Part shown: piece after piece, positions 222 through 41,668 of the stretch
Position numbering within the stretch: the first letter of the stretch is position 1
Layout of the letters: each line of letters opens with the position of its first letter
Translations under genes and position numbers: made by a program
DNA from: Patescibacteria group bacterium
GTDB lineage: Bacteria > Patescibacteriota > Patescibacteriia > UBA2591 > UBA4787
DNA length: 64,000 bases
Direction of reading: 5' to 3'
Assembly: GCA_028715115.1 (NCBI GenBank)
Contig: JAQUSN010000001.1
Location: forward strand, 3,314-67,313
Notes under the pieces: model-generated
The model's database searches: none
Seen by the model: only the letters and a program-made list of their open reading frames with translations
What the model was told of the DNA's origin: nothing

Positions 222-2642
222 TTAAAAATTTCTTAATTTAGCATTAAATTTATCAAATAATAATTTTACCAAATCATTAATAACCTTATCTATTTCCTGT
301 GAATTTAATGTTCTTTCAAATGATTGAAAAGTTAAATGAAAGGCGACATTAAGCACGTCAGCGCCTAATTTGTCTGACTCAAAAACATCAAATGCTTCTA
401 CTCCAGAAATTAAGGGATGAAAGTCCTTGATTGTTTTTAATAAGTCAGCTAAAACCGTCGACCTAGCCACAATAAAAGACAAATCTCTTAAAATCGGAGG
501 GTAATTGGAAATAGTTTTAAACATTGGCGTGGGCCTTTCGATTACCTTGAGGTTTTCTATATTAATTTCAAATAAACCAGCGCCGGAATTTATCTTTAAT
601 GAGTTTTTTAGAGCATCATCTAATTCTCCTGTGACGCCAATCAATTTTTTATCAACAAAAATGCCGATTATATTTTTAAGATATTGATACTGATGATTCT
701 TGCCAACTTGAAAAGAGATTCGTTCCGTACCAAAACCGGCTTTCGACAAAACCGTTTCGATTATTGATTTAATCGAATAAAATAATTTTTTATTCTTTTC
801 GATGATAATGCCCGAGCAATATTTTTCTTCTTTTACCAGCATTTCCTGATCCGGTTGATAGATTTTACCAACCTCAAAAATCCTAAACTGACCAAAAATT
901 GGAATATTCTTTAGGGCATTCTCCAATAAATAAGGAATTAAACTTATTCTTAAATATTTCAATTGCGGACTTAAGGGGTTGGCTAGGGACAAATGATCCT
1001 CGATCTTCAGCTTTAGCTGATTAATTAATCTATCTCCGTAAAATGAATAATTATAAGTCTCATCAAAACCACTGGCAACTAGGGTTAATTTAATATTTTG
1101 CTCAAGTTTAAAATCGTCATTATAAGAAACCGGCGTAATTTGACCCGTTAGCGGTTGCGGCATCAAATCGTCTAAACCATAAATACGCACAATATCTTCT
1201 ATTAGGTCTTCCGGCTGCTCCACGTCAGGCCTATACAAAGGAACGCTTACTGATATTTTTTTCTGGCTTATTTTTTTCACCCCAAAACCCAATGACTTTA
1301 AAATGCTTATTATTTTAGTTAAATTAATCGGAGCGCCAACTAAATCATGGACTCTTTTTACGTCTAAGGCGATGATTTTTTTGTTTTTTATTAAATTACT
1401 AATCTTAACACTCCGTAAATCATAAATCTGGCTGACTATCTTCCCGCCGGCTAATTCTTCTATTAATTCAACGGCTCTGGCGAGTCCTTGCTCGGAAAAA
1501 GTTACAGGTAAACCTTTTTCAAAACGCAAAACCGCCTCGGTTCGCAAGCCGGTTCGCCAAGAAGTACGACGAATAGCGGCTGGTTCAAAAAGCGCCGATT
1601 CGATTATGACAGTCTTGGTCTTGCTATCAATAGCTGAGTACTGGCCGCCGATAATGCCGGCCAAGGCTATTGGACCGCGGTTATCAGCAATAACCAAGTC
1701 GCCTTCCTGGCATTCGTAGGTTTTGGCATCAAGCGCTAAAATACGTTCGCTTTTTTTAGCCAAACGAACAAAAATATTTTTATTTTTTTCTGACGATACC
1801 TTGTCTAGCTTATCAAAATCAAAAGCATGAAGCGGCTGACCTCTTTCTAGTAAAACATAATTAGTAATGTCTACGACATTATTGATCGGTTTAATGCCCA
1901 AATTTCTCAATCTATTTTGAAGCCAAAGCGGCGAAGGGCCAATCTTAATAGAATCCATAATCACCGCCATATAGCGTGGACAGAGTTTATCGTTGCTAAT
2001 TTTAATGTTAACTTTTAGTAAACCGCTTTTTGTTTTTGGTAGTTTAAGCGGTATTTCTTTTATTTGCTGTCCTTTGATGGCTGCGATTTCTTTGGCAAAA
2101 CCTTCAACCGAGAATAAGTCAGGCCGATGAGTTAATGATTTATTTTCCACGTCTAAAATAGTATCGTCAAGCTCTAAAAGTTTAGTAATTGGTTCGCCGA
2201 CCCTTGATTTTTCGGGCAAAACTAAAATGCCGGTATGATCATCGCCCAAACATAATTCATCTTCGGCGCAAAGCATACCGATCGATTTTACACCCCTAAT
2301 AACAGCCTCTTTTATCTCCGCACCATTAGGCAATCGCGCACCGGGCAAGGCTAACGGAACTATCTGACCGGACTTGATATTAGGCGCGCCGCAAACAATT
2401 TCTAAGCGCTGATCTTGCCTGGTTTTTTTGTCGGGGAAAATAATGGTCGCGATTTTTAATTTATCTGCGTTAGGGTGCGGCTTAACTTCAACAATTTTGA
2501 CGGCAATAATCCGATCTAAATTTTTATTCAAAGATACCGTGCCCTCAACCTGCGCTACGCGCGTAGTCAAAAGTTTAGCCAAATTTTCTGGCGATTCGTT
2601 GAATTTTACTAACTTCTTGAGCCACTGATAAGATAATTTCAT
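222..2642 (-). CDS. pheT: phenylalanine--tRNA ligase beta subunit
   Basis: 806-aa product beginning MKLSYQWLKKLV (internal Met of the 826-aa ORF). PheT-like throughout, with B3/4 and FDX-ACB-like regions. Confidence 0.9.
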   Translation of the reverse strand: MKLSYQWLKKLVKFNESPENLAKLLTTRVAQVEGTVSLNKNLDRIIAVKIVEVKPHPNADKLKIATIIFPDKKTRQDQRLEIVCGAPNIKSGQIVPLALPGARLPNGAEIKEAVIRGVKSIGMLCAEDELCLGDDHTGILVLPEKSRVGEPITKLLELDDTILDVENKSLTHRPDLFSVEGFAKEIAAIKGQQIKEIPLKLPKTKSGLLKVNIKISNDKLCPRYMAVIMDSIKIGPSPLWLQNRLRNLGIKPINNVVDITNYVLLERGQPLHAFDFDKLDKVSSEKNKNIFVRLAKKSERILALDAKTYECQEGDLVIADNRGPIALAGIIGGQYSAIDSKTKTVIIESALFEPAAIRRTSWRTGLRTEAVLRFEKGLPVTFSEQGLARAVELIEELAGGKIVSQIYDLRSVKISNLIKNKKIIALDVKRVHDLVGAPINLTKIISILKSLGFGVKKISQKKISVSVPLYRPDVEQPEDLIEDIVRIYGLDDLMPQPLTGQITPVSYNDDFKLEQNIKLTLVASGFDETYNYSFYGDRLINQLKLKIEDHLSLANPLSPQLKYLRISLIPYLLENALKNIPIFGQFRIFEVGKIYQPDQEMLVKEEKYCSGIIIEKNKKLFYSIKSIIETVLSKAGFGTERISFQVGKNHQYQYLKNIIGIFVDKKLIGVTGELDDALKNSLKINSGAGLFEINIENLKVIERPTPMFKTISNYPPILRDLSFIVARSTVLADLLKTIKDFHPLISGVEAFDVFESDKLGADVLNVAFHLTFQSFERTLNSQEIDKVINDLVKLLFDKFNAKLRNF

Positions 2643-34580: not shown

Positions 34581-35264
34581 TTAAATAACGTATCGACCGC
34601 CCTTGATTTGATCGCCGATAACCATGCCGTGATCTAAGGTAATTACTCGACGTTTTAATAAATTAACAATTTCTCGATTATGACTCACCAGTAAAATAGT
34701 CGTACCGAATTTATTAATTTTTAAAAGCAAATCAATTATATCTCTGGTATTAATGGAGTCGAGATTGCCAGTCGGCTCATCGGCAATTAAAATTTTTGGC
34801 TTATTGGCAATGGCTCGGGCAATAGCTACGCGCTGCGCCTCGCCAGCCGATAATTGATGAGGCCAACGATTGGCCTTACTTTCTACGCCAACAATGCGTA
34901 AAATTTGCGGAACCATAGCTTTTATTTTTTTTTCCGGAGTACCGACTACTTCAAGGGCAAAAGCAACGTTTTCGTAAACGTTTTTTTTGGGCAATAATTT
35001 AAAATCCTGAAAGACCACACCCACCTGACGGCGTAAATATGGTATTTCTTGACTATTAATATCAGTGATATCCCAGCCGCCAATGATGATTTTGCCCTGG
35101 GTGGCCTTTTCTTCGGCAATAAGCAATTTTATAACCGTGGTTTTGCCGGCACCTGATTGGCCAACCAGGGAAACAAACTCGCCCGCCTCAACACTAAAAG
35201 AAACATTACGCAAAGCATGCGTATTTGGCGGATAGAATTTACTAATGTTGATTAATTTAATCAT
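34581..35264 (-). CDS. ABC transporter ATP-binding protein (FtsE/LolD-like)
   Basis: Walker A GQSGAGKTT, signature LSAGEAQRVAIARA, Walker B ILIADEPT. Confidence 0.8.
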   Translation of the reverse strand: MIKLINISKFYPPNTHALRNVSFSVEAGEFVSLVGQSGAGKTTVIKLLIAEEKATQGKIIIGGWDITDINSQEIPYLRRQVGVVFQDFKLLPKKNVYENVAFALEVVGTPEKKIKAMVPQILRIVGVESKANRWPHQLSAGEAQRVAIARAIANKPKILIADEPTGNLDSINTRDIIDLLLKINKFGTTILLVSHNREIVNLLKRRVITLDHGMVIGDQIKGGRYVI

Positions 35265-35276
35265 TTAATTTTTTTC

Positions 35277-35332
35277 TGGAGCCGAGGGTGAGGATCGAAC
35301 TCACGACCTATGGTTTACGATACCGTTGCCCC
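35277..35332 (-). pseudogene. 3' remnant of a tRNA-Thr-like gene (D-stem 3' side through CCA, anticodon CGU)
   Basis: rc = GGGGCAACGGTATCGTAAACCATAGGTCGTGAGTTCGATCCTCACCCTCGGCTCCA. Its acceptor 3' strand CCTCGGC matches the isolated 5' fragment GCCGAGGTAGCTC at 35625-35637. Confidence 0.5.
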
Positions 35333-35347
35333 GCCTGCCATCGCCCT

Positions 35348-35420
35348 AGCCCGCGGTCGGAATCGAACCGACAACCTACGGTTTACGATACCGTTGCTCT
35401 ACCAGTTGAGCTACACGGGC
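35348..35420 (-). tRNA. tRNA-Thr (anticodon CGU)
   Basis: rc = GCCCGTGTAGCTCAACTGGTAGAGCAACGGTATCGTAAACCGTAGGTTGTCGGTTCGATTCCGACCGCGGGCT. 7-bp acceptor, loop ATCGTAA. Flanked by GGCGATGGCAGGCGGGG (35329-35346) and CCTGCCCGCCATAG (35426-35439). Confidence 0.85.
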
Positions 35421-35444
35421 TCAGGCTATGGCGGGCAGGTCTAC

Positions 35445-35528
35445 CCTACTTCGAGCTTATTAATTAAGCTCGAACGGGCCGTCCAGTTTTTTTCAAAAAC
35501 TGGAATAGGCCAATTGAGCTATCTGGGC
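35445..35528. repeat. conserved double-hairpin repeat (TTCGAGCTTA-N-TAAGCTCGAA, CGGGCCGT, CCAGTTTTT-N3-AAAAACTGG, AATAGG) fused to a 19-nt tRNA 5' fragment (GCCCAGATAGCTCAATTGG on the minus strand)
   Basis: About 80% identical to 41280-41358. The hairpin core is also at 40671-40690. Confidence 0.7.
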
Positions 35529-35624
35529 AAAAGTGGCGGGGCAAGGCTGCCCCGACGTTTTAGTCGGTCCGATGACTCCGACGAGTATCGGACTCCGTCG
35601 GAGGACTCCGACTGTAACGTCGGA

Positions 35625-35637
35625 GAGCTACCTCGGC
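35625..35637 (-). pseudogene. isolated tRNA 5' fragment GCCGAGGTAGCTC (identical to nt 1-13 of tRNA-Thr(UGU) at 40605-40617, plus 2 nt of its upstream flank)
   Basis: rc of gagctacctcggc. Followed on the minus strand by hairpin-rich sequence homologous to 40690-40760. Confidence 0.5.
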
Positions 35638-35820
35638 ATTAACACTCAGTCAGCCTATTAATATAATACACTAGGCTGAAAATTTTTCAATTGGAGCGGG
35701 TAACGGCCTGCCTGCCCTGACTGCCGTCAGGCGGGCGGTAGGCAGGGAATTGAATCTTTACTTGGGAAGTCCTAAAAGTTTTTGCAATCCGCCAAATTGC
35801 GGAGAAGTAGTGAATTTTTG

Positions 35821-35895
35821 TGGAGCGGGCGACCGGATTCGAACCGGCGACCTTCTGCTTGGGAAGCAGACATTCTACCACTGAACTACGCCCGC
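35821..35895 (-). tRNA. tRNA-Gly (anticodon CCC), CCA encoded
   Basis: rc = GCGGGCGTAGTTCAGTGGTAGAATGTCTGCTTCCCAAGCAGAAGGTCGCCGGTTCGAATCCGGTCGCCCGCTCCA. Confidence 0.85.
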
Positions 35896-35936
35896 TTAAT
35901 CAAAAGGGATATATCTTGGCTCGCAAAAAACCGGAT

Positions 35937-35968
35937 CCTCGAAAAAGATATTCACTGCCAACTGGCAG
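35937..35968 (-). terminator. putative intrinsic terminator downstream of def (CTGCCAGTTGGCAG plus TCTTTTTCG)
   Basis: 14-nt perfect palindrome at 35955-35968 followed by a U-rich tract on the minus strand. Confidence 0.35.
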
Positions 35969-36020
35969 ATCATTCTTTTCCGGGAGACGCATTCTGCCGT
36001 TGAACCATACCCGCCTAAAA

Positions 36021-36635
36021 TTATTTTTTAGAGCTATTCTTAATTTTTTTTAATTGTCCTCTTAATTTGGCTTTTTGATAAAAACTTAGTCTATCAATCA
36101 ATAATTTACCGACTAAATGATCCATCTCGTGTAAAATTACTCTAGCTAAAAGATCTTCAGCCCTAATAATGGTTTTTTGTCCGCTAGAAAAATCTATATT
36201 TTCAATTTCTATTTTTTCCGGCCGTTTGACTAATACGGATACTCCTGGCACGCTTAAACATCCTTCTTCTAATTTTTTGCATTTTTTTGACTTCTTAATT
36301 ATTTTGGGATTAATTAAAATAATCGGTCCTTCGCCAATATCAACGATGGCGATTTTTTTAGCCACTCCCACTTGATTAGCGGCTAGACCAACTCCATCAG
36401 CATCGCCTAAAGTCGCCAGCATATTGGCAATTAGTTTTCTCGCCTCATCGTCAATAGCTAAAACCGACTTAGCCGTCTGACGCAAAACTGGATGCCCATA
36501 AGCTACAATATCTAAAATTTGCGAGGTAAAATTTTTTATCTCGCTATTAATTATCGGTATAGCATTGATTCTCTTGCCTTTTGAGGATAAAGTCATAAGT
36601 AAATAATATATTAGCAAAATCTGCCGATTTGTCAA
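36021..36635 (-). CDS. def: peptide deformylase
   Basis: GLAANQVGV, EGCLSVPG and HEMDHL motifs. Confidence 0.85.
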   Translation of the reverse strand: MTNRQILLIYYLLMTLSSKGKRINAIPIINSEIKNFTSQILDIVAYGHPVLRQTAKSVLAIDDEARKLIANMLATLGDADGVGLAANQVGVAKKIAIVDIGEGPIILINPKIIKKSKKCKKLEEGCLSVPGVSVLVKRPEKIEIENIDFSSGQKTIIRAEDLLARVILHEMDHLVGKLLIDRLSFYQKAKLRGQLKKIKNSSKK

Positions 36636-36699
36636 AATTAGTTAGACAATTATCGACGTTGGGTATATACTTAAACTATTAAATAGTAATATAGATTTT

Positions 36700-37260
36700 A
36701 TGATTCTCTTTTGGGTCATTTTAATTGTCGTTGTTTTGTTTATTCTTTGGCTGATTGGCGTTTTTAATTCGTTGGTTATGGCTAAAAACCGAACCAATGA
36801 AGCTTGGGCTGACATAGAAGTACAATTAAAACGCCGCTATGATTTAATCCCCAATTTAGTTGAAACCGTCAAAGGCTATGCGACGCACGAACGTGAACTT
36901 TTTGAAAAGGTTACCTTGGCCCGCACTAAAGCTATGGGCGCACAAACCCTTAAAGAGCATGGCGAAGCGGAAAATATGCTAACCGGCACGCTGAAATCTT
37001 TATTCGCCGTAGCGGAAAATTATCCAGACCTTAAGGCCAACCAAAACTTTTTAGAATTACAAAGAGAATTAGTTGACGCTGAAGATAAAATCCAGGCTGC
37101 TCGCCGATTTTATAACAGCAACGTCAGAGACTTTAACACAAAAATAGAAATCTTCCCGAATCGCATTGTGGCTGGTTGGTTAAAATTCACTTCTCGCGAC
37201 TTCTTTGAACTGGGCGAAAATGACGCAGCCGCCAAAGAACCGGTTAAAGTAAAATTTTAA
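36700..37260 (+). CDS. lemA: LemA family protein
   Basis: N-terminal TM. NEAWADIEVQLKRRYDLIPNLVETVKGYATHERELFEKV. Confidence 0.8.
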   Translation: MILFWVILIVVVLFILWLIGVFNSLVMAKNRTNEAWADIEVQLKRRYDLIPNLVETVKGYATHERELFEKVTLARTKAMGAQTLKEHGEAENMLTGTLKSLFAVAENYPDLKANQNFLELQRELVDAEDKIQAARRFYNSNVRDFNTKIEIFPNRIVAGWLKFTSRDFFELGENDAAAKEPVKVKF

Positions 37261-37264
37261 TCAC

Positions 37265-38173
37265 ATGAATCTCTATAACAATATTTCTTCCAATATTCGC
37301 AAGACATGGTTGCTTATGACAATTTTTTTGATTTTGATTATCGGTATCGGCTATTGGTTGTCCTATGTTTATAATTCTTATGATATTTTGATTATTGCCG
37401 TTATTTTTAGCGTAGGTACCAGCTTTCTTTCCTATTGGTATTCTGATAAAATCGTGTTGGGCTTAAATAAAGCGCAGGAAATAAAAAAACAAGACGCACC
37501 CGAGCTTTATCGCTTGATTGAAAATCTCTGTATTACTGCCGGTTTGCCGACGCCAAAAGTATATGTTCTTGAAGAACCAGCTATGAATGCTTTTGCCACC
37601 GGACGAAATGCCCAACACGCGGTTATTGCGGTTACTCGCGGCCTATTAGAAAAGCTAGACAAAACCGAATTAGAAGGGGTTATTGCTCATGAATTATCAC
37701 ATATTGGCAATCGCGACATGTTACTGCAAACTGTAGTGGTAATTCTGGTTGGCATGCTTACTATGGCTTGTAATTTATTTTTTAGATTGAGTTTTTATGG
37801 GGGCCGACGGCGCTCTGACAATAACGAAGGTGGCGCGGCCGGCGCGATATTTTTAGTCTTGGGTTTGATTGCTATTATTCTAGCGCCGATTTTAGCCAGA
37901 TTGCTTAGTTTAGCTATTTCGCGCAAGAGAGAGTTTTTGGCTGACAGCTCCGGCGCCATGCTTACTCGCTATCCTGACGGCTTAGCCAGCGCTCTAGAAA
38001 AAATAGGCCAAGATCAAGCGCCGCTTAAAGTCGCTAATCCAGCTATGGCCCATCTTTACATCGACAATCCGTTTCACAATCAGCAAAAAATAAATTGGTT
38101 TAACAAGCTATTCCTGACTCACCCGCCGATGGAAGATCGAATCAGGGTTTTAAGGCAAATGAATATTCAATAA
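37265..38173 (+). CDS. htpX: M48 zinc metalloprotease HtpX
   Basis: HELSHIGNRDM (HExxH). Four TM helices. Confidence 0.85.
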   Translation: MNLYNNISSNIRKTWLLMTIFLILIIGIGYWLSYVYNSYDILIIAVIFSVGTSFLSYWYSDKIVLGLNKAQEIKKQDAPELYRLIENLCITAGLPTPKVYVLEEPAMNAFATGRNAQHAVIAVTRGLLEKLDKTELEGVIAHELSHIGNRDMLLQTVVVILVGMLTMACNLFFRLSFYGGRRRSDNNEGGAAGAIFLVLGLIAIILAPILARLLSLAISRKREFLADSSGAMLTRYPDGLASALEKIGQDQAPLKVANPAMAHLYIDNPFHNQQKINWFNKLFLTHPPMEDRIRVLRQMNIQ

Positions 38174-38265
38174 GGTGACCCTCCGACTCGCAAACTCGCT
38201 CCGGGTTATTTTAGCTCCGCTTAATACCCGCTGACTTGGCATTGAAGCTAAAATAAAAAATATAA

Positions 38266-38306
38266 AGTAAAACAAAAATCCTGAGTTAATCGGGATTTTT
38301 TGTTTA
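38266..38306 (+). terminator. intrinsic terminator after htpX
   Basis: AAATCCTGA-GTTAA-TCGGGATTT followed by TTTTGTTT. Confidence 0.45.
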
Positions 38307-38527
38307 GAAAATTTCTGGCGGGATAAACTTCGTTTCACTACACTTATCTCATCTTTCTGCTGTTAAACTTCACCAACACCTCATTAAGCGAAGTGTTAGC
38401 GGAGTTTAATGGCGAGACGTTCGGGTTAAGCGCCCCGATAGCAAAACTTTATAAGGGTATTTTAACGTTATTTTTGCTGAGATCCTAATGTTTACGGGTC
38501 GCAGCTAAAACAGAAAGAATATAAATA

Positions 38528-39256
38528 TTATAAGTTATCTTGAAATAATCCCGTTTTAAGTTGCATAATATATCTTTCCACAAGATCTATATTTTCCTTT
38601 GTCGCGATTATACTAGTGGGTGAGAACTTATAAATCTGGGATCTATTACTTAAAAGCTGGTTGAATAAATTTGACAGCTCTCTCGGTATGTTGTTATTTT
38701 TAGCTTCAATATTGACTAAAGATTGGGTGGCGCCGTGAGTTTTCGCACCTTTTATATTATTACCTTGTAGAGGATTTTTAAAAAGTGTAGCATGTAAAGC
38801 CTGTTCGAGAGCTTGAAATAAATTATATGCTTTAACCTTTTCGGTACTTACGGCCTTAGCGGACTTGATAAAATCTTCGGCTAATCTTATCTTTTCACAT
38901 GCATTTTTTTTGTTCGGGATAAAGTTAAAATAAATTGTCCAGTATTTGTTTATGGTGACCACAGCAATAAAACCAAAGTTGTCAAAAATTTCTTCAGGAA
39001 CCGATATATTCTTTATTTTATGTTTTGCTAGTTCTTGAGCGGTAATAGGAGCGCCGGGCACTAAAGGGCCACCCACCGAGGGATCAATAGTGATTTTAAG
39101 TTCGGTTTCTCCATTCAGGCGAATTTCTGTTTTTTCCGGTCTAAATATTATTAAAATTGCGTAAATAGGATCGGTAAAGTTGCGACGAGCAACTTCAGGC
39201 ATAATCCACAATTCATGGATTTGTCTGATTAAATTTTGAGTAGCGATAGTGTTCAT
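38528..39256 (-). CDS. hypothetical protein
   Basis: 242-aa ORF with host-like AT-rich composition. No recognisable motifs. Confidence 0.5.
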   Translation of the reverse strand: MNTIATQNLIRQIHELWIMPEVARRNFTDPIYAILIIFRPEKTEIRLNGETELKITIDPSVGGPLVPGAPITAQELAKHKIKNISVPEEIFDNFGFIAVVTINKYWTIYFNFIPNKKNACEKIRLAEDFIKSAKAVSTEKVKAYNLFQALEQALHATLFKNPLQGNNIKGAKTHGATQSLVNIEAKNNNIPRELSNLFNQLLSNRSQIYKFSPTSIIATKENIDLVERYIMQLKTGLFQDNL

Positions 39257-39335
39257 GTCCTAATTAACTACTGCGCCATGGAAAAAAATAATATTTAAAA
39301 ATAAAGATTCGGGTCATGCCGATAAAAAATTTTAA

Positions 39336-39409
39336 TGGCGGGGGTGGCAGGAATCGGACCCGCATTATCGGTTTTGGAGACCGGTGTTCTACCACTGAAC
39401 TACACCCCC
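39336..39409 (-). tRNA. tRNA-Trp (anticodon CCA), CCA encoded. Atypical T-loop TCCGATT and one C-A mismatch in the anticodon stem.
   Basis: rc = GGGGGTGTAGTTCAGTGGTAGAACACCGGTCTCCAAAACCGATAATGCGGGTCCGATTCCTGCCACCCCCGCCA. Confidence 0.7.
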
Positions 39410-39805
39410 GTATTTGATGGTTTTGCCTACCTGCCGCAGGAGACTAGTGCTCTGCTTCACCCCACCTAAACAAGCCGGGCAAATTTAACTACGCCCCCAG
39501 GCTGGTAGTACACTGTTTATTTAGTTTCCTTGTGAACAATATGCTTTCGGCAAGAACGGCAATATTTTTTCAATTGCAAACGCTCTTTGACGTTTTTTTT
39601 ATTTTTCGTGGAAAAATAATTAAGCCGATGGCATCCCGTACATTCTAATTTTATCAAATTTTCTTGACTCATAGAAAAATGGTTATGTATTAATAATATT
39701 TTCTAAAACTAAACCGTCCCCCTTAATTAAAGTAAAGCTCCGGAAAAATCATCTCGAGATTACTCGCTCGACCACCTCTCTTGAATTTTAGGACAAGTAA
39801 TATTC

Positions 39806-40459
39806 TTATTCTTTCTCGGGGTTAAAAATTTCTTGCGAGCCAGCTTCTATTTGGTTGTCCGGAGGGAAAGATCGAGAAAATTCAATTTGCTTACCAAGAA
39901 TATTGGCGAGCCTTTGTTTCCCATCTTCTGTAAAACTGCCCGTAAACCCCACCTTCCCTTTGTCCGCCTCTATTCCACGCAGTTCACCGAGATCACCGAA
40001 TTCGTAAACCTCCTTTAGCTTTTCCTCGGGTATGCCCAAAAGGAGAAACAGCTTCTCTACTTGCATTGTTTTAATCTTACCGGGGCCACCTGATGGTATA
40101 TGCACGGAATTGTATTCTGGAAAAACAAAAGCTCTACAAGGAACGCCAACCTTGGCGCTAGCCCGAAGATCGTCTAGAAACTTCTGGTCTTTCGCTTCTT
40201 CTTTTGCAATCCACTCTTCAGCAGCTTCATAATCTCTTTTTGTCGGCTGAGCGTCTTTATTTAGCGAGCCAATCGTTTTGTAATCAAACACTTTTCCGCT
40301 TGCTTCAACCTCCATTCTAACTGCCGCGAACGATCTTGCTATGGTTTCTACCCTCTTTTCTCTCGGCACTTTATACCATGGTACTATATTGGGTTCAGGC
40401 CTTCTGACCGTGTTCTCTGGTGATGATACCGCCTCATGTTTTCTAAAAGGATTAAACAT
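39806..40459 (-). CDS. hypothetical protein with intermediate GC (about 46%), located between tRNA genes
   Basis: 217-aa ORF. Composition differs from both the AT-rich host genes and the 55% GC cassettes. Confidence 0.5.
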   Translation of the reverse strand: MFNPFRKHEAVSSPENTVRRPEPNIVPWYKVPREKRVETIARSFAAVRMEVEASGKVFDYKTIGSLNKDAQPTKRDYEAAEEWIAKEEAKDQKFLDDLRASAKVGVPCRAFVFPEYNSVHIPSGGPGKIKTMQVEKLFLLLGIPEEKLKEVYEFGDLGELRGIEADKGKVGFTGSFTEDGKQRLANILGKQIEFSRSFPPDNQIEAGSQEIFNPEKE

Positions 40460-40544
40460 AGATTTAATAGTTTGATATTAATTTATAACTTCAACCTGGT
40501 CTATCTTATATTTCGACCTTTAAAATTAACATGCCCTTCCCATT

Positions 40545-40617
40545 AGCCGAGGGTCGGAATCGAACCGACAACCTATGGTTTACAAAACCATTGCTCTGCC
40601 TATTGAGCTACCTCGGC
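40545..40617 (-). tRNA. tRNA-Thr (anticodon UGU)
   Basis: rc = GCCGAGGTAGCTCAATAGGCAGAGCAATGGTTTTGTAAACCATAGGTTGTCGGTTCGATTCCGACCCTCGGCT. Confidence 0.85.
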
Positions 40618-40639
40618 ATAGTCAGCTCAGACTAAGGCG

Positions 40640-40760
40640 GACGGGCAGAGCCACTACCGCCCAGTTTTAAGAAAAACTGGAATAGGCTGTTGTCCCGACG
40701 TTTCAGTAGAAAAGTCGGGTCTCCGACCGAAAGCGTCGGAGAGCTAGGGCGGCATGCTCG
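40640..40760. repeat. copy B of the tRNA-associated repeat: hairpin CCAGTTTTAAGAAAAACTGG, hairpin-rich CCCGACG/GTCGGAG segment, and a tRNA-like 5' fragment GCCGCCCTAGCTC
   Basis: Homologous to 35483-35637 (shared CCCGACGTTT, GTCGGAGAGCTA, GGCAT). Degenerate CCTGCCCG-CCGCC motif directly upstream of the tRNA. Confidence 0.55.
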
Positions 40761-40832
40761 CGGTTACAAATCGCGTAACTATTTTTTTCTAGCCAATTTT
40801 CTTGTTTCCTGAATTATACCCATATAAATTCT

Positions 40833-40918
40833 GGTGGGCGGGGCAGGATTTGCACCTGCGAAGGCCGGAGGCCAACAGATTTACAGTCTGCTGCATTTGA
40901 CTACTTTGCTACCCGCCC
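40833..40918 (-). tRNA. tRNA-Tyr (anticodon GUA), class II with a long variable arm, CCA encoded
   Basis: rc = GGGCGGGTAGCAAAGTAGTCAAATGCAGCAGACTGTAAATCTGTTGGCCTCCGGCCTTCGCAGGTGCAAATCCTGCCCCGCCCACCA. Confidence 0.8.
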
Positions 40919-40931
40919 CAATTAACATCTA

Positions 40932-41004
40932 AGCCCGAGGTCGGATTTGAACCGACGACCTACTCCTTACCATGGAGTTGCTCTACCAGCTGAGCTACCC
41001 GGGC
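40932..41004 (-). tRNA. tRNA-Thr (anticodon GGU)
   Basis: rc = GCCCGGGTAGCTCAGCTGGTAGAGCAACTCCATGGTAAGGAGTAGGTCGTCGGTTCAAATCCGACCTCGGGCT. Confidence 0.85.
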
Positions 41005-41256
41005 ATGTTGTAAATATTGTTTTAAAATTTTCTGCTTTAATTTGGCGCTATATAAACTTTTAAAGTATTTTTCTTGTTCCATCGCTTCAACTCGTGTATC
41101 AAATGATTCTTGATGAATAACAATAAACGGCCTTCTATTTTTTGTCGATATTACCTGCCCACTATTATGTTTTTTAACTCTCGCCACTAGGTCATCAGTT
41201 TGCCCAACATATAATTTTTTATCTTTCAGGCTATATAAGATATAAACAAAATACAT
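40960..41256 (-). CDS. GIY-YIG domain endonuclease (small, URI-type). The 3' end of the ORF runs into the tRNA-Thr(GGU) gene.
   Basis: FVYILYSLKDKKLYVGQTDDLVARVKKHN...E matches GIY / YIG / R / H-N / E spacing. The last roughly 15 codons are tRNA sequence. Confidence 0.65.
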   Translation of the reverse strand: MYFVYILYSLKDKKLYVGQTDDLVARVKKHNSGQVISTKNRRPFIVIHQESFDTRVEAMEQEKYFKSLYSAKLKQKILKQYLQHARVAQLVEQLHGKE

Positions 41257-41279
41257 ATTTTGCTACTTGCTTTACCCTA

Positions 41280-41358
41280 ATTCGAGCTTATTAGATAAGC
41301 TCGAACGGGCCGTCCAGTTTTAAGAAAAACTGGAATAGGCCAGCTGAGCTACCCGGGC
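41280..41358. repeat. copy C of the tRNA-associated repeat plus an exact 19-nt duplicate of the tRNA-Thr(GGU) 5' end (GCCCGGGTAGCTCAGCTGG, with 2 nt of upstream flank)
   Basis: ttcgagcttattagataagctcgaacgggccgtccagttttaagaaaaactggaataggccagctgagctacccgggc. Confidence 0.7.
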
Positions 41359-41401
41359 ATAAAAACATGATTAAAAATTATAGCAGATATTCGTTAAAAA
41401 A

Positions 41402-41668
41402 TCAAGAGGTTTTCTTAGAAAAAACTTTCTTACAAAAAGCAGCAAATTTTGAACAACCGACTCTTGTATCCTTAAAAAATTTTTGCCACCAAGCTGCCCA
41501 CTCGCGCATAAACCTTTGCTGCATTAAATTCTTTTTAATTTCCGCTTGTAGTTCTGATCTGGTATCTAGCGGGATAGAGGCAACTAAAGGCAGTTTTTTG
41601 AAAATTATTGCCCAAATAATAATTAGCGCTCCAACTAAAATTATTAATAATAGAATATTGAAAATCAT
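41402..41668 (-). CDS. small membrane protein (N-terminal TM, basic C-terminus), co-directional with tpiA
   Basis: 88 aa. The overlapping antisense ORF 41367-41672 is judged spurious. Confidence 0.45.
   Translation of the reverse strand: MIFNILLLIILVGALIIIWAIIFKKLPLVASIPLDTRSELQAEIKKNLMQQRFMREWAAWWQKFFKDTRVGCSKFAAFCKKVFSKKTS

Follow-up and report, generated by a model that had tools for sequence, protein, structure and literature searches.

A nested tRNA-Thr(CGU) locus in a Patescibacteria genome, with a neighboring GIY-YIG nuclease gene as the best lead to its mechanism

Architecture of the nested tRNA-Thr(CGU) locus

The window, which is the whole 64-kb stretch of DNA that was analyzed, carries a three-layer "Russian doll" of tRNA-Thr genes on its minus strand (locus A), in which only the innermost tRNA-Thr(CGU) gene is complete. 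The features of the locus, in the 5' to 3' direction of the minus strand, are as follows.

35663..35690, minus strand: promoter-like site TTGAAA-16 nt-TATTAT, 5' of the 5' fragment of the resident gene (consensus scan only)
35625..35637, minus strand: nt 1-13 of the resident (outer) tRNA-Thr(CGU), GCCGAGGTAGCTC, identical (13/13) to the uninterrupted gene in contigs L067, L068, and L069
35551..35624, minus strand: palindromic TCCGACG/GTCGGAG hairpin module, abutting nt 13
35529..35550, minus strand: spacer GCAGCCTTGCCCCGCCACTTTT (fold of the whole locus)
35510..35528, minus strand: nt 1-19 of a second ("middle") tRNA-Thr, GCCCAGATAGCTCAATTGG, with the break after G18 G19
35446..35509, minus strand: double-hairpin palindrome of 64 nt in the D loop of the middle tRNA (covariance model R1, 36.5 bits, E 3e-8)
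35440..35445, minus strand: GGTAGA, nt 18-23 of the middle tRNA, which resumes past the palindrome (read from the sequence)
35421..35439, minus strand: left arm CCTGCCCGCCATAGCCTGA of an imperfect inverted repeat flanking the inner tRNA (duplex energy; whole-locus fold)
35348..35420, minus strand: intact inner tRNA-Thr(CGU) with no encoded CCA (ARAGORN; Rfam tRNA, 68.3 bits)
35330..35347, minus strand: right arm AGGGCGATGGCAGGCGGG of the inverted repeat (duplex energy; whole-locus fold)
35312..35329, minus strand: GCAACGGTATCGTAAACC, nt 24-41 of the middle tRNA, equal to the inner allele, with 2 differences from the resident allele
35277..35311, minus strand: nt 42-76 of the resident tRNA-Thr(CGU), encoded CCA included, identical (35/35) to the uninterrupted gene

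The 13-nt piece was found twice in the window, against 0.01 matches expected by chance, and it is identical to nt 1-13 of tRNA-Thr(UGU) at 40605-40617 with the 2 flanking nt AT included, as the original prediction had stated. The CCGACG/GTCGGAG hairpins beside it, which had been called homologous to a second locus, recur at 40694-40740, and the junction of TAGCTC with TCCGACG is repeated at 40734-40746. The 19-nt fragment showed the D-loop break and the 4 mismatches to the intact inner tRNA that had been noted, and its architecture is the same as that at 41340-41358 and at L067 1674-1692. The double hairpin, in the order CCTATT, hairpin 1, ACGGCCCG, hairpin 2, and GTAG, had been described as common to a locus near 41.3 kb (locus C), and its distal part was 94% identical to 41277-41339. 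In the L067 ortholog of locus C, GGTAGAGCA is located at the position equivalent to GGTAGA. The predicted intact tRNA-Thr(CGU) was also recovered, and the 3' remnant (35277-35329) ends in CCTCGGCTCCA, complementary to the first 13-nt fragment as expected.

The sequence GCAACGGTATCGTAAACC continues GGTAGA after the double hairpin and is therefore nt 24-41 of the middle tRNA; GGTAGA (35440-35445) and GCAACGG... (from 35329 downward) are contiguous tRNA positions, 18-23 and 24-41, respectively. The intact tRNA-Thr(CGU) with its inverted repeat sits exactly between nt 23 and 24. Accordingly, the middle tRNA is dead twice, by the palindrome in its D loop and by the cassette between nt 23 and 24.

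Folding of the whole locus as RNA paired GCCGAGG of the outer 5' fragment with CCTCGGC of the remnant and gave helices on both sides of the inner tRNA (z-score -9.6). In the same fold, GCCCCGCC of the spacer pairs with GGCGGGGC (35327-35334), downstream of the inner tRNA, and the arms of the inverted repeat are also paired. The duplex energy of the repeat was -28.5 kcal/mol versus a shuffle mean of -19.9, a value equalled by 1.2% of the shuffles. The TTGAAA/TATTAT site probably drives transcription of the entire composite, and the consensus scan detected no further minus-strand promoter-like site between it and the intact tRNA. The inner tRNA is presumably transcribed from this resident promoter and then excised by the normal tRNA-processing enzymes. 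One ORF covers the insert (35310-35642, plus strand); it overlaps the tRNA and the hairpins and has no gene call in the NCBI record. Since an independent NCBI MAG record has the identical 751 nt (Thr and Gly loci) and a third assembly has the last 131 nt in common with this block, the nested locus is not an assembly artefact.

Uninterrupted alleles and tRNA cassettes in relatives

The original prediction had proposed a search for empty sites in relatives. A metagenome scan with the last 30 nt of the remnant as the query yielded contigs L067, L068, and L069, all of which carry an uninterrupted 76-nt tRNA-Thr(CGU) gene, GCCGAGGTAGCTCAGTTGGTAGAGCAATGGTTTCGTAAACCATAGGTCGTGAGTTCGATCCTCACCCTCGGCTCCA. 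In all three, this gene occupies the genomic position of the window locus, and in L068 and L069, it lies directly upstream of ftsE. Because of these uninterrupted alleles, the 13-nt piece and the remnant are recognized as the two ends of one gene. The resident gene upstream of ftsE has been split in its D arm by an insert with a complete tRNA-Thr(CGU), as had been claimed, with an insert of 295 bp rather than about 285 bp, and nt 14-23 of its D arm (ten nt, AGTTGGTAGA, G18 G19 among them) are missing. The FtsE neighbor was a 94%-identical match.

The claim that the remnant is the second half of that gene did not hold for its first 18 nt, which belong to the middle tRNA. Compared with the empty allele, the remnant matched at 51/53 positions, and both differences fall in the first 18 nt and have the states of the incoming allele. 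The 3' remnant is thus a mosaic, in which the first 18 nt come from the incoming allele and the last 35 nt from the resident. The mosaic tract lies beside the insertion, as in co-conversion, and contains 2 diagnostic incoming bases; it shows recombination and says nothing on which enzyme made the break. The acceptor stems of the inner, middle, and outer genes differ at paired positions (GCCCGTG, GCCCAGA, and GCCGAGG, respectively), and their T arms differ too. The 19-nt fragment does record a second event, and its age relative to the first depends on the route: the second event is younger if the events took place in situ, and older only if the composite arrived ready-made.

Similar arrangements were found in related lineages. 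In L066, an interruption behind nt 18 divides this resident gene (CCCCGTTAGA, an intact tRNA-Thr, and CTAACGGGG), and a separate 73-nt palindrome is present in its T loop. In L062, L063, and L065, a different resident tRNA-Thr, which is the ortholog of the inner gene of L066, is split in the anticodon loop, and the split gene of L062 is without its anticodon. The L062-type and L066 cassettes have the same inverted-repeat core, CCCGTTAG/CTAACGGG, around an intact tRNA-Thr; this CCCGTTAG...CTAACGGG unit is inserted in the anticodon loop in L062 and in the D loop of another gene in L066. The duplex energies of the L062 and L066 repeats were -25.8 and -28.4 kcal/mol, respectively, and 0/500 shuffles reached them; the window repeat differs from the L062/L066 repeat and is weaker. 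In L067, an intact gene is followed by two 3' stumps. We propose the inverted-repeat-flanked tRNA cassette here as an element with no published family. Resistance of the incoming tRNA through D-loop differences was considered but found no support, as the outer and inner genes of L062 have the same D loop (AACTGGCA). The literature, searched with incomplete coverage, yielded no account of nested tRNA genes, the palindromes described here, or GIY-YIG genes at Patescibacteria tRNA/tmRNA loci.

The GIY-YIG nuclease gene and its palindromes

A GIY-YIG nuclease gene has the double hairpin near 41.3 kb as its leader, a point missed by the original prediction, and this gene is the best lead to the mechanism. 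The features of locus C and of the adjacent locus B are as follows.

41377..41405, minus strand: promoter-like site of the locus C tRNA operon, TTGATT-17 nt-TATAAT
41340..41358, minus strand: pseudo-copy of nt 1-19 of tRNA-Thr(GGU), 19/19 identical to 40986-41004 and identical in L067
41266..41339, minus strand: double-hairpin palindrome (41277-41339; R1, 37.7 bits) followed by GGTAAAGCAAG
40960..41256, minus strand: GIY-YIG nuclease ORF of 98 aa (Pfam PF01541)
40932..41004, minus strand: intact tRNA-Thr(GGU), directly 3' of the nuclease ORF (ARAGORN; Rfam)
40618..40753, minus strand: locus B, inserted between tRNA-Tyr and tRNA-Thr(UGU)
40741-40753, minus strand: 13-nt fragment GCCGCCCTAGCTC of locus B
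40694-40740, minus strand: shorter hairpin module of locus B
40661-40686, minus strand: hairpin 1 of the palindrome in locus B, followed by a spacer
40545..40617, minus strand: intact tRNA-Thr(UGU) of locus B (ARAGORN; Rfam)

At locus C, GGTAAAGCAAG is the counterpart of tRNA nt 18-28, folding of the palindrome as RNA gave a z-score of -4.3, and hairpin 2 has compensatory changes in L067, where like hexamers (TTGATT and TATACT) precede the 19-nt fragment. At locus B, the acceptor stem of tRNA-Thr(UGU), GCCGAGG/CCTCGGC, equals that of the resident Thr(CGU) gene. In L067, the interval from Tyr to Thr(UGU) measures only 24 nt, and the Thr(UGU) gene begins with GCCGTCCTAGCTC. The nuclease leader, composed of the 19-nt tRNA fragment and the double-hairpin palindrome, has a copy without the ORF at locus A.

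The pattern TCCGAC..GTCGGA gave 4 matches in the window versus 0.04 expected, 3 of them in loci A and B, and model R1 detected the double hairpin at two places only in the 64 kb (loci A and C, E about 1e-8). Only two full copies and one partial copy of the palindrome, all at tRNA-Thr loci, are present in the window, and each tmRNA locus in the relatives has 1-4 copies. In the family alignment, both hairpins covary, with 16/16 hairpin pairs changed on both sides, and 90.4% of the cells are paired, compared with 66.8% for shuffled alignments and no more than 54% for slid controls. The stems are almost purely Watson-Crick (9 G-U-type cells versus 99 double changes) and the model gives a good score to the reverse strand of the palindrome as well, a pattern that points to palindromes at the DNA level, like those of REP elements. 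The flanks (GG, then C(C)TA...TAG, then GG) are compatible with a 2-nt duplication. A three-way junction is only one possible reading of the double hairpin, because the closing stem CTAAA/TTTAG is invariant and the RNAalifold structure has the GGG of the 3' end paired with the invariant junction CCC instead. A hammerhead-type core was rejected by eye, as the junction strands do not fit. The Rfam searches (gathering thresholds for the window and 34 loci; up to E = 5 for 35200-41450) found no family for the hairpins or the double hairpin and no intron or ribozyme; up to E = 5, 35200-41450 gave six tRNAs and chance-level matches only. The tmRNA-type palindrome pattern had 0 matches in viral contigs. 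The Thr-type pattern had 5, none adjoining a tRNA, and these were taken as chance because the one match that was inspected (L071) lies in a GC-rich ORF and forms no hairpin. A tblastn search against phage records gave only matches of ~40-45%, in unannotated Listeria and Staphylococcus records.

The nuclease ORF (40960-41256), present as one copy in the window, matched Pfam PF01541 with an E of 1.1e-16 and 61 bits (cut-off 22.6). The GIY-YIG domain comprises residues 1-72, and the ORF runs into the tRNA gene, which contains its last 15 codons and its stop codon. The homologs are 80-106 aa long, and the domain fills the protein; in their alignment, the GIY-YIG, R, H, and E positions are invariant and no separate C-terminal DNA-binding domain was seen. 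Over the whole short protein, the profile matched the UPF0213 structures PDB 1ywl (EF2693, E 3e-13, residues 4-83) and 1zg2 (BH0048, E 4e-11), followed by SLX1 chains (E about 0.003-0.02). The group I intron endonuclease model TIGR01453 reached 22.6 bits versus a cut-off of 56, over residues 2-33 only. The nuclease (84-98 aa) is predicted from its sequence to be a UPF0213/SLX1-like bare catalytic domain. To our knowledge, no function has been demonstrated for bacterial UPF0213/YhbQ/YazA proteins; the literature search likewise found none, and an exact look-up showed that the 98-aa product of the window is not on record.

Compared with its syntenic ortholog in L067, the nuclease gene had a dN/dS of 0.04 with synonymous sites saturated, indicating that it is under purifying selection. 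Despite this saturation, the 19-nt fragment matches at 19/19 positions, and the palindrome persists, with compensatory changes. The gene occurs at tRNA-Thr(GGU) in the window and in L067, and leader versions without the ORF occur at loci A and B; no filled/empty polymorphism of the gene was seen, and the searches yielded no tRNA-Thr(GGU) site that was empty.

A tRNA or tmRNA gene adjoins 35/52 homologous nuclease loci. The nuclease is followed by a tmRNA gene at 22/52 loci (in L013, by the tmRNA leader palindrome only, at the contig end) and by a tRNA at 8/52, and a tRNA lies upstream at 5/52; an RNA gene nearby is absent at 16/52. All the loci with a directly downstream tRNA (8/8) have a pseudo-copy of the 5' part of a tRNA upstream of the ORF, interrupted by a GC-rich hairpin. 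This pseudo-copy matches the downstream tRNA closely in 7/8 and is divergent in L049; in most nuclease loci it is near-identical, with 12-23 nt exact. Two pseudo-copies each were found in L030 and L043, a matching 3' stump also in L004 and L030, and a mirror layout with two 3' stumps in L041 (a Calditrichia genome). In 22 genomes, which belong to several classes, the order is smpB, nuclease, palindrome, and tmRNA. The mature 5' end of the tmRNA always borders directly on the palindrome, extra copies lie inside the tmRNA genes of L011, L023, and L027, and the order of ORF and palindrome is reversed relative to the Thr loci. The nuclease clades track target and palindrome type, and the insertion position varies along with them. 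No nuclease gene was found at locus A or within ~1.5 kb on either side of the L062 and L066 loci, so the inverted-repeat-flanked cassettes may move by another route.

Origin of the nested genes and comparison with known systems

We hold it to be reasonably probable that the nested genes arose by layered tRNA replacement, a break-induced and homing-like process with tRNA sequence as the homology arms and a presumed role for the nuclease. Small cassettes with their own tRNA would enter a resident isoacceptor gene via DNA-break repair, using as homology arms the tRNA itself, which would be the sole sequence common to divergent genomes. Crossovers within the tRNA would leave 5' and/or 3' stumps and mosaic junctions, and repeated rounds would lead to nesting. 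The putative break-maker would be the GIY-YIG nuclease encoded 5.8 kb away, in front of tRNA-Thr(GGU), and this UPF0213/SLX1-like protein probably drives such replacements.

Some observations speak against the nuclease model. The protein has no DNA-binding domain by which to find a tRNA gene, and the D-loop sequences do not consistently separate invaded from incoming alleles. At most loci, the intact downstream tRNA and the pseudo-copy have the same 5' sequence, so a sequence-specific cutter would not spare the gene that hosts it. A domesticated host function is likewise compatible with the strong purifying selection and with positions that stayed fixed while divergence reached saturation; the positions in question are the tmRNA order in 22 genomes and tRNA-Thr(GGU) in two. 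It is conceivable, though improbable, that the bare GIY-YIG domain, its cognate hairpin or double hairpin, and the adjoining 12-23 nt of tRNA form a self-propagating unit, targeted by nucleic acid and not by a DNA-binding part of the protein. Either the tRNA-derived leader could then act as a guide or decoy, or the palindrome could be a branched-DNA substrate for an SLX1-like cutter.

There is some chance, if not a large one, that the nuclease-palindrome module is a domesticated host system, which processes or protects tRNA/tmRNA precursors or genes or constitutes a REP/RAYT-like palindrome-nuclease pair; in that case, palindrome activity or ordinary recombination among paralogous tRNAs would have given rise to the nested tRNAs as by-products. 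The low dN/dS at saturated divergence with fixed synteny, the conserved smpB-to-tmRNA order in several classes, the palindromes at the tmRNA 5' ends and inside tmRNA genes, and the apparently DNA-level stems are consistent with such a system, as is the differing order of ORF and palindrome at tmRNA and Thr loci, which fits action in trans. However, a processing role leaves the stumps, the mosaic junction, and the nested replacement unexplained, the family is patchy, with no RNA gene nearby at 16/52 loci, and bacterial UPF0213 proteins are without known activity.

Local duplication and decay alone, i.e., slippage or unequal crossing-over, divergence, and insertion of unrelated palindromic repeats with no outside tRNA and no dedicated nuclease, is an unlikely origin. 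Partial tandem duplication would give pseudo-copies near-identical to the downstream tRNA, as observed, and the paired pseudo-copies of L030 and L043 also suit it. Nevertheless, the acceptor stems and T arms differ among the three layers, yet the outer gene, where it survives, shows 100% identity to the empty allele; divergence in place therefore had no time to occur. Furthermore, one inverted-repeat core flanks cassettes at two sites in two resident genes, the inner gene of L066 is the ortholog of the outer gene of L062, and nuclease clade, palindrome type, and insertion position vary together.

It is very doubtful that the locus encodes a functional interrupted tRNA, whose outer halves are exons that are spliced or used split while the inner tRNA is released from the "intron". 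Patescibacteria do have tRNA introns (PMC13011429), the outer parts equal the uninterrupted gene at 13/13 and 35/35 positions, and the acceptor strands pair around the inner tRNA in the whole-locus fold. This reading is rejected because nucleotides are missing: the outer gene lacks nt 14-23 with G18 G19, and the split gene of L062 lacks its anticodon. In L066, the T loop of the split gene also holds the 73-nt insert. In addition, the first 18 nt of the remnant, derived from another allele, put a C-A mismatch into the anticodon stem, the search of 35200-41450 up to E = 5 matched neither a group I intron nor any other Rfam family, and a complete tRNA of the same anticodon lies inside.

Finally, tRNA genes are classic integration sites, tyrosine-integrase islands leave partial tRNA copies, and the intact gene followed by 3' stumps in L067 and L041 resembles attL/attR, but the scar of an integrase-mediated island or prophage, later almost entirely deleted, is hardly credible here, as the 295 bp between the stumps hold RNA-like sequence only, with no integrase gene and too little room for one, 5' and 3' stumps flank an intact gene whose 5' end is not that of the resident, the breaks lie in the D arm and anticodon loop, and the cassettes are 100-300 bp with inverted repeats.

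In summary, layered tRNA replacement implies that essential tRNA genes can turn over by invasion, in which a newcomer with its own tRNA destroys the resident from within; in the reduced genomes of Patescibacteria, this would have been repeated and independent at one locus in related lineages. Annotation is affected by tRNA stumps and spurious ORFs, and assemblies break at nested loci. Phylogenies of tRNA are affected as well, since the tRNA-Thr(CGU) genes that work in close relatives are not orthologs of one another. The UPF0213/YhbQ/YazA family gains a testable context, namely tRNA/tmRNA loci with co-varying palindromes. If the link to the nuclease is true, the recent finding in phages that GIY-YIG nucleases remodel tRNA loci would extend to bacterial chromosomes. 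If the self-propagating unit is true, it would represent a new class of tRNA/tmRNA-specific "gene replacement" element and the first function for the widespread UPF0213/YhbQ family.

Among known systems, intron-less homing involves co-conversion of flanking markers, and the mosaic remnant of the window looks like such a co-conversion tract. SegB is a protein of ~220 aa with a DNA-binding part, whereas the protein described here is a bare catalytic domain of 84-98 aa, chromosomal in Patescibacteria, and its gene comes with a pseudo-tRNA leader and a cognate palindrome in hairpin or double-hairpin form. As with SegB and other free-standing homing endonucleases in the tRNA gene clusters of T-even phages, the GIY-YIG gene lies amid tRNA genes. 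SegB, a phage endonuclease of the GIY-YIG type, is tRNA-gene-associated and cuts inside tRNA genes, brings about the duplication of a tRNA gene along with segB in a recombination-dependent manner, and loses its toxicity when truncated C-terminally (PMC13096335).

Integrative elements that target tRNA genes (islands, prophages, and archaeal elements) share with the present loci the tRNA/tmRNA targets, the partial copies, the restoration of a working tRNA, and the stump arrays produced by successive events. Unlike them, the 295-bp insert has no integrase, the cassettes are only 0.1-0.4 kb, the breaks lie in the D arm or anticodon loop with stumps on both sides, and a complete tRNA arrives with the cassette while the resident one is killed.

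REP/RAYT systems (REPtrons) and Rickettsia palindromic elements are likewise built from small palindromes whose stems covary. Also typical of REP/RAYT is a nuclease gene in single copy that is flanked by cognate palindromes and subject to purifying selection, and palindromic MITEs and REP elements, similarly to those in the tmRNA genes of L011, L023, and L027, have copies inside RNA genes. In contrast, the protein found here is a GIY-YIG hydrolase and not an HUH/Y1 transposase, the elements are confined to tRNA/tmRNA loci with 2.5 copies in 64 kb, and some cassettes carry tRNA cargo.

The published tRNA introns of Patescibacteria are group I introns in the anticodon loop (PMC13011429). Split and intron-containing tRNAs resemble the nested locus in that the gene is in pieces that helices join in the fold, but the pieces here are incomplete, with the D loop or anticodon missing, and an intact gene of the same anticodon lies inside.

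OMEGA systems (IscB/TnpB with omega RNA) combine a flank-derived target, a structured element, and a nuclease ORF, and cut the empty site. Similarly, a 12-23 nt 5' fragment of tRNA, a structured element, and a small nuclease ORF are found here in order; however, the nucleases are unrelated in fold and the present protein is much the smaller, the copied tRNA sequence goes on past the hairpin, ORF and palindrome stand in the opposite order at tmRNA loci, and RNA guidance is without support here.

Interruption of the resident tRNA-Thr(CGU) gene

At locus A (35277-35637), a resident tRNA-Thr(CGU) gene has been entered by a layered insertion with recombination junctions inside tRNA sequence, and such insertion recurs at different positions. 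The original prediction had listed fragments of a split tRNA, hairpins and an intact tRNA at this locus; all of these elements were found on the minus strand, with matches far above chance.

Elements of locus A and the adjacent promoter-like site
35663-35690, minus strand, promoter-like site
35625-35637, minus strand, GCCGAGGTAGCTC (13-nt fragment)
35551-35624, minus strand, TCCGACG/GTCGGAG hairpin module
35529-35550, minus strand, spacer
35510-35528, minus strand, GCCCAGATAGCTCAATTGG (19-nt fragment)
35446-35509, minus strand, double-hairpin palindrome
35440-35445, minus strand, GGTAGA
35421-35439, minus strand, left inverted-repeat arm
35348-35420, minus strand, intact tRNA-Thr(CGU)
35330-35347, minus strand, right inverted-repeat arm
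35277-35329, minus strand, tRNA 3' part (53 nt), ending CCTCGGCTCCA

The 13-mer GCCGAGGTAGCTC has two matches in the window, where chance would give 0.01, the TCCGACG/GTCGGAG-type hairpin pattern matched four times against 0.04 expected, and a covariance model run over the 64 kb detected only the two known copies of the double hairpin. The same 751 nt are present in an NCBI MAG record, and the 3' part is also common to a third assembly. A functional intron-containing or split tRNA was considered and rejected on the tests applied to locus A.

The final 30 nt of the remnant (the 53-nt 3' part) served as query in a scan of a metagenome collection, the kind of search for empty sites in relatives that had been proposed along with the prediction. 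Three contigs matched (L067, L068 and L069), each with an uninterrupted 76-nt tRNA-Thr(CGU) gene whose first 13 nt are those of the window's fragment and whose nt 24-76 agree with the remnant in 51 out of 53 positions. As in the window, ftsE immediately follows this gene in L068 and L069, and L069 is also syntenic with L066, a related tRNA-Thr locus. Because the uninterrupted alleles match both pieces, the fragment and remnant represent opposite ends of one resident gene, which backs the reading of a single interrupted tRNA gene; in the window this gene has lost AGTTGGTAGA and gained 295 bp.

Both differences between the remnant and the empty allele fall in the first 18 nt of the remnant (GCAACGGTATCGTAAACC, tRNA positions 24-41), and at each of them the remnant carries the base of the inner tRNA. 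The six nucleotides following the double hairpin, GGTAGA, are tRNA positions 18-23. Together, the 19-nt fragment, GGTAGA and GCAACGGTATCGTAAACC form one middle tRNA-Thr. Its D loop holds the palindrome, the inner tRNA with its flanking inverted repeats sits precisely between its positions 23 and 24, and a crossover in GTAAACC connects this middle tRNA to the resident 3' part. The RNA of the whole locus folds in a nested way that agrees with these layers, and the flanks of the inner tRNA show stronger pairing than 98.8% of shuffles.

A plus-strand ORF of 110 aa (35310-35642) spans the tRNA and hairpins on the opposite strand; it is almost certainly spurious and could get annotated as a hypothetical protein, and short ORFs were called over the equivalent region of the related locus L062. 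The CCA end is encoded by the resident tRNA-Thr genes and not by the cassette-borne inner tRNAs (window 35277-35279 and 35348; L062, L066). A lone perfect palindrome, TCCGACTATAGTCGGA (2829-2844), has the arm sequence of the hairpin module and lies far from any detected tRNA.

Recurrence in relatives and at neighboring loci

The tRNA-Thr locus of related genomes was fetched by means of ftsE. L066, whose FtsE is 85% identical, has the same resident gene interrupted after nt 18, in the order CCCCGTTAGA, intact tRNA-Thr, CTAACGGGG, with an additional 73-nt palindrome in the T loop of the split gene. In L062, L063 and L065 (FtsE 88% identical), a different gene, the ortholog of the inner tRNA of L066, is broken in the anticodon loop with loss of the anticodon, and the inverted-repeat core of the cassette is the same as in L066. 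L067 carries two 3' stumps behind an intact gene. The break falls at nt 13 in the window, at nt 18 in L066 and in the anticodon loop in L062; as it differs from lineage to lineage, these are separate events. The window, L066 and the L062-type relatives do not share one working tRNA-Thr(CGU) gene.

Palindromic inserts of about 60-73 nt (TCCGCTACATC...GAGCGGGC) occur in the T loop of dead tRNA-Thr genes, after T54 T55 (L066 1359-1431 and L067 7879-7939), and have the CTCCGA/GTCGGAG-type hairpin motif of the window's hairpin module. In the relative L064 (GCA_964507775.1, CAZDQK010000013.1), exactly 100 N (1328-1427) replace the 113-nt insert of L062, L063 and L065, from just past GCAATCG to just short of TAAGCGATAGG, which could be masked sequence or a scaffold gap due to repetition of the tRNA sequence.

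The gap between tRNA-Tyr and tRNA-Thr(UGU) is only 24 nt in L067 (2209-2232), where tRNA-Thr(UGU) starts with GCCGTCCTAGCTC. In the window (locus B, 40618-40753, with its tRNA-Thr(UGU) at 40545-40617), this gap is 214 bp (40618-40831) and includes a 13-nt stump, GCCGCCCTAGCTC (40741-40753), that resembles the 5' end of the L067 resident, GCCGTCCTAGCTC; the acceptor stem of the window's working tRNA-Thr(UGU) differs from that of this resident. Locus B is a further replacement, with an incoming tRNA-Thr(UGU), and it fits the locus A pattern, as does locus C (40932-41358).

The neighboring tRNA-Gly(CCC) gene (35821-35895, minus strand, within 35692-36014) looks nested too, with a tRNA 5' part upstream (GCGGGTATGGTTCAACGGCAGAATG, 35990-36014). 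Downstream of the gene are an isolated piece of anticodon loop (CTTCCCAAG, 35761-35769) and, at 35692-35704, a 3' end (GTTACCCGCTCCA) in which TACCCGC complements GCGGGTA. A similar stump, GTTACCCGCT, follows the tRNA-Gly of L069.

Linkage of the nuclease gene, palindromes and partial tRNA copies

A nuclease gene is linked to the palindromes and partial tRNA copies. At 41.3 kb, the double-hairpin repeat of the original prediction is present, and the ORF that follows it had been overlooked: locus C consists of the 19-nt fragment, the double hairpin, GGTAAAGCAAG and a 98-aa ORF (40960-41256) that runs into an intact tRNA-Thr(GGU). Its product belongs to the SLX1-like UPF0213/YhbQ/YazA proteins and has a GIY-YIG domain, beside which no further domain was found, and the ORF is single-copy within the window. 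Comparison with the syntenic ortholog in L067 gave a dN/dS of 0.04 at saturation of synonymous sites (pS 0.73). L067 nonetheless has an identical 19-nt fragment, preceded by a similar promoter-like site (TTGATT/TATACT), and compensatory changes in hairpin 2 of the palindrome. Because fragment, promoter-like site and palindrome are kept at saturated divergence, the leader at locus C is conserved and not a decaying scar.

Aligned homologs were used to scan genomes, which yielded 52 loci, nearly all from Patescibacteria. A tmRNA gene lies just downstream on the same strand at 22 of the 52 (at L013, only the leader palindrome, at a contig end), a tRNA just downstream at 8, a tRNA just upstream at 5, and no RNA gene nearby at 16; L040, where the tRNA lies farther downstream (about 1.1 kb) and a group I intron is nearby, was left out of these classes. 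This intron (1829-2061, minus strand, Nomurabacteria contig; Rfam 74.5 bits) is just downstream of the GIY-YIG homolog, and no tRNA was detected around it.

All eight loci with a tRNA downstream have a pseudo-copy of a tRNA 5' part upstream of the ORF, closely matching the downstream tRNA in seven and divergent in L049. Each pseudo-copy is broken by a GC-rich hairpin after nt 12, 19-23 or 26, beyond which tRNA sequence resumes, and L004 and L030 have a 3' stump downstream as well. The layout is mirrored in L041 (1364-1960), a Calditrichia MAG outside Patescibacteria. The order there is intact tRNA-Leu(CAA), hairpin, GIY-YIG ORF and two stumps; the first is a 3' stump of this tRNA, 45 nt long with 1 mismatch, and the other is shorter.

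At every tmRNA locus, the tmRNA 5' end is abutted by a palindrome (GGCTAAAAC, hairpin 1, GTTCGCCCGAAC, hairpin 2, GTTTTAG). Both hairpins covary strongly, with double changes in 16 of 16 pairs and 90% of cells paired versus 67% in shuffles. G-U pairs are nearly absent from the stems and the model fits the reverse strand too, a hint that these are DNA-level palindromes. The nuclease clades track target and palindrome type. Copies of this palindrome also lie inside tmRNA genes (L011 2053-2111, L023 2110-2171, L027 2054-2122 and L037 1963-2013), which still score as full-length tmRNA (Rfam).

Proposed mechanism and known systems

A resident tRNA gene would be broken and then repaired from a donor whose cassette has tRNA-derived sequence on both sides, and the product would reproduce the donor layout of stump, cassette and stump; a right-hand crossover inside the incoming tRNA would leave the 5' stump alone. 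The break is probably made by the GIY-YIG protein, by analogy with the phage enzyme SegB, which cleaves within tRNA genes and causes the recombination-dependent duplication of a tRNA gene plus segB (PMC13096335).

A full-text literature search returned no account of nested tRNA genes, of the palindromes seen here or, in Patescibacteria, of GIY-YIG genes at tRNA/tmRNA loci, and GIY-YIG genes, tRNA pseudo-copies and such hairpin insertions go unmentioned in a paper on tRNA introns of Patescibacteria (PMC13011429). Three known systems come closest: free-standing GIY-YIG homing endonucleases from the tRNA clusters of phages, whereas the nuclease here is without a DNA-binding domain; integrase-borne tRNA-targeting elements, whereas the 295-bp insert holds no integrase; and REP/RAYT-type palindromes with a nuclease, whereas the protein here is no HUH transposase and the window has two full copies and one partial copy of the double-hairpin palindrome, all at tRNA-Thr loci. 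The locus fails defining tests for each of the three.
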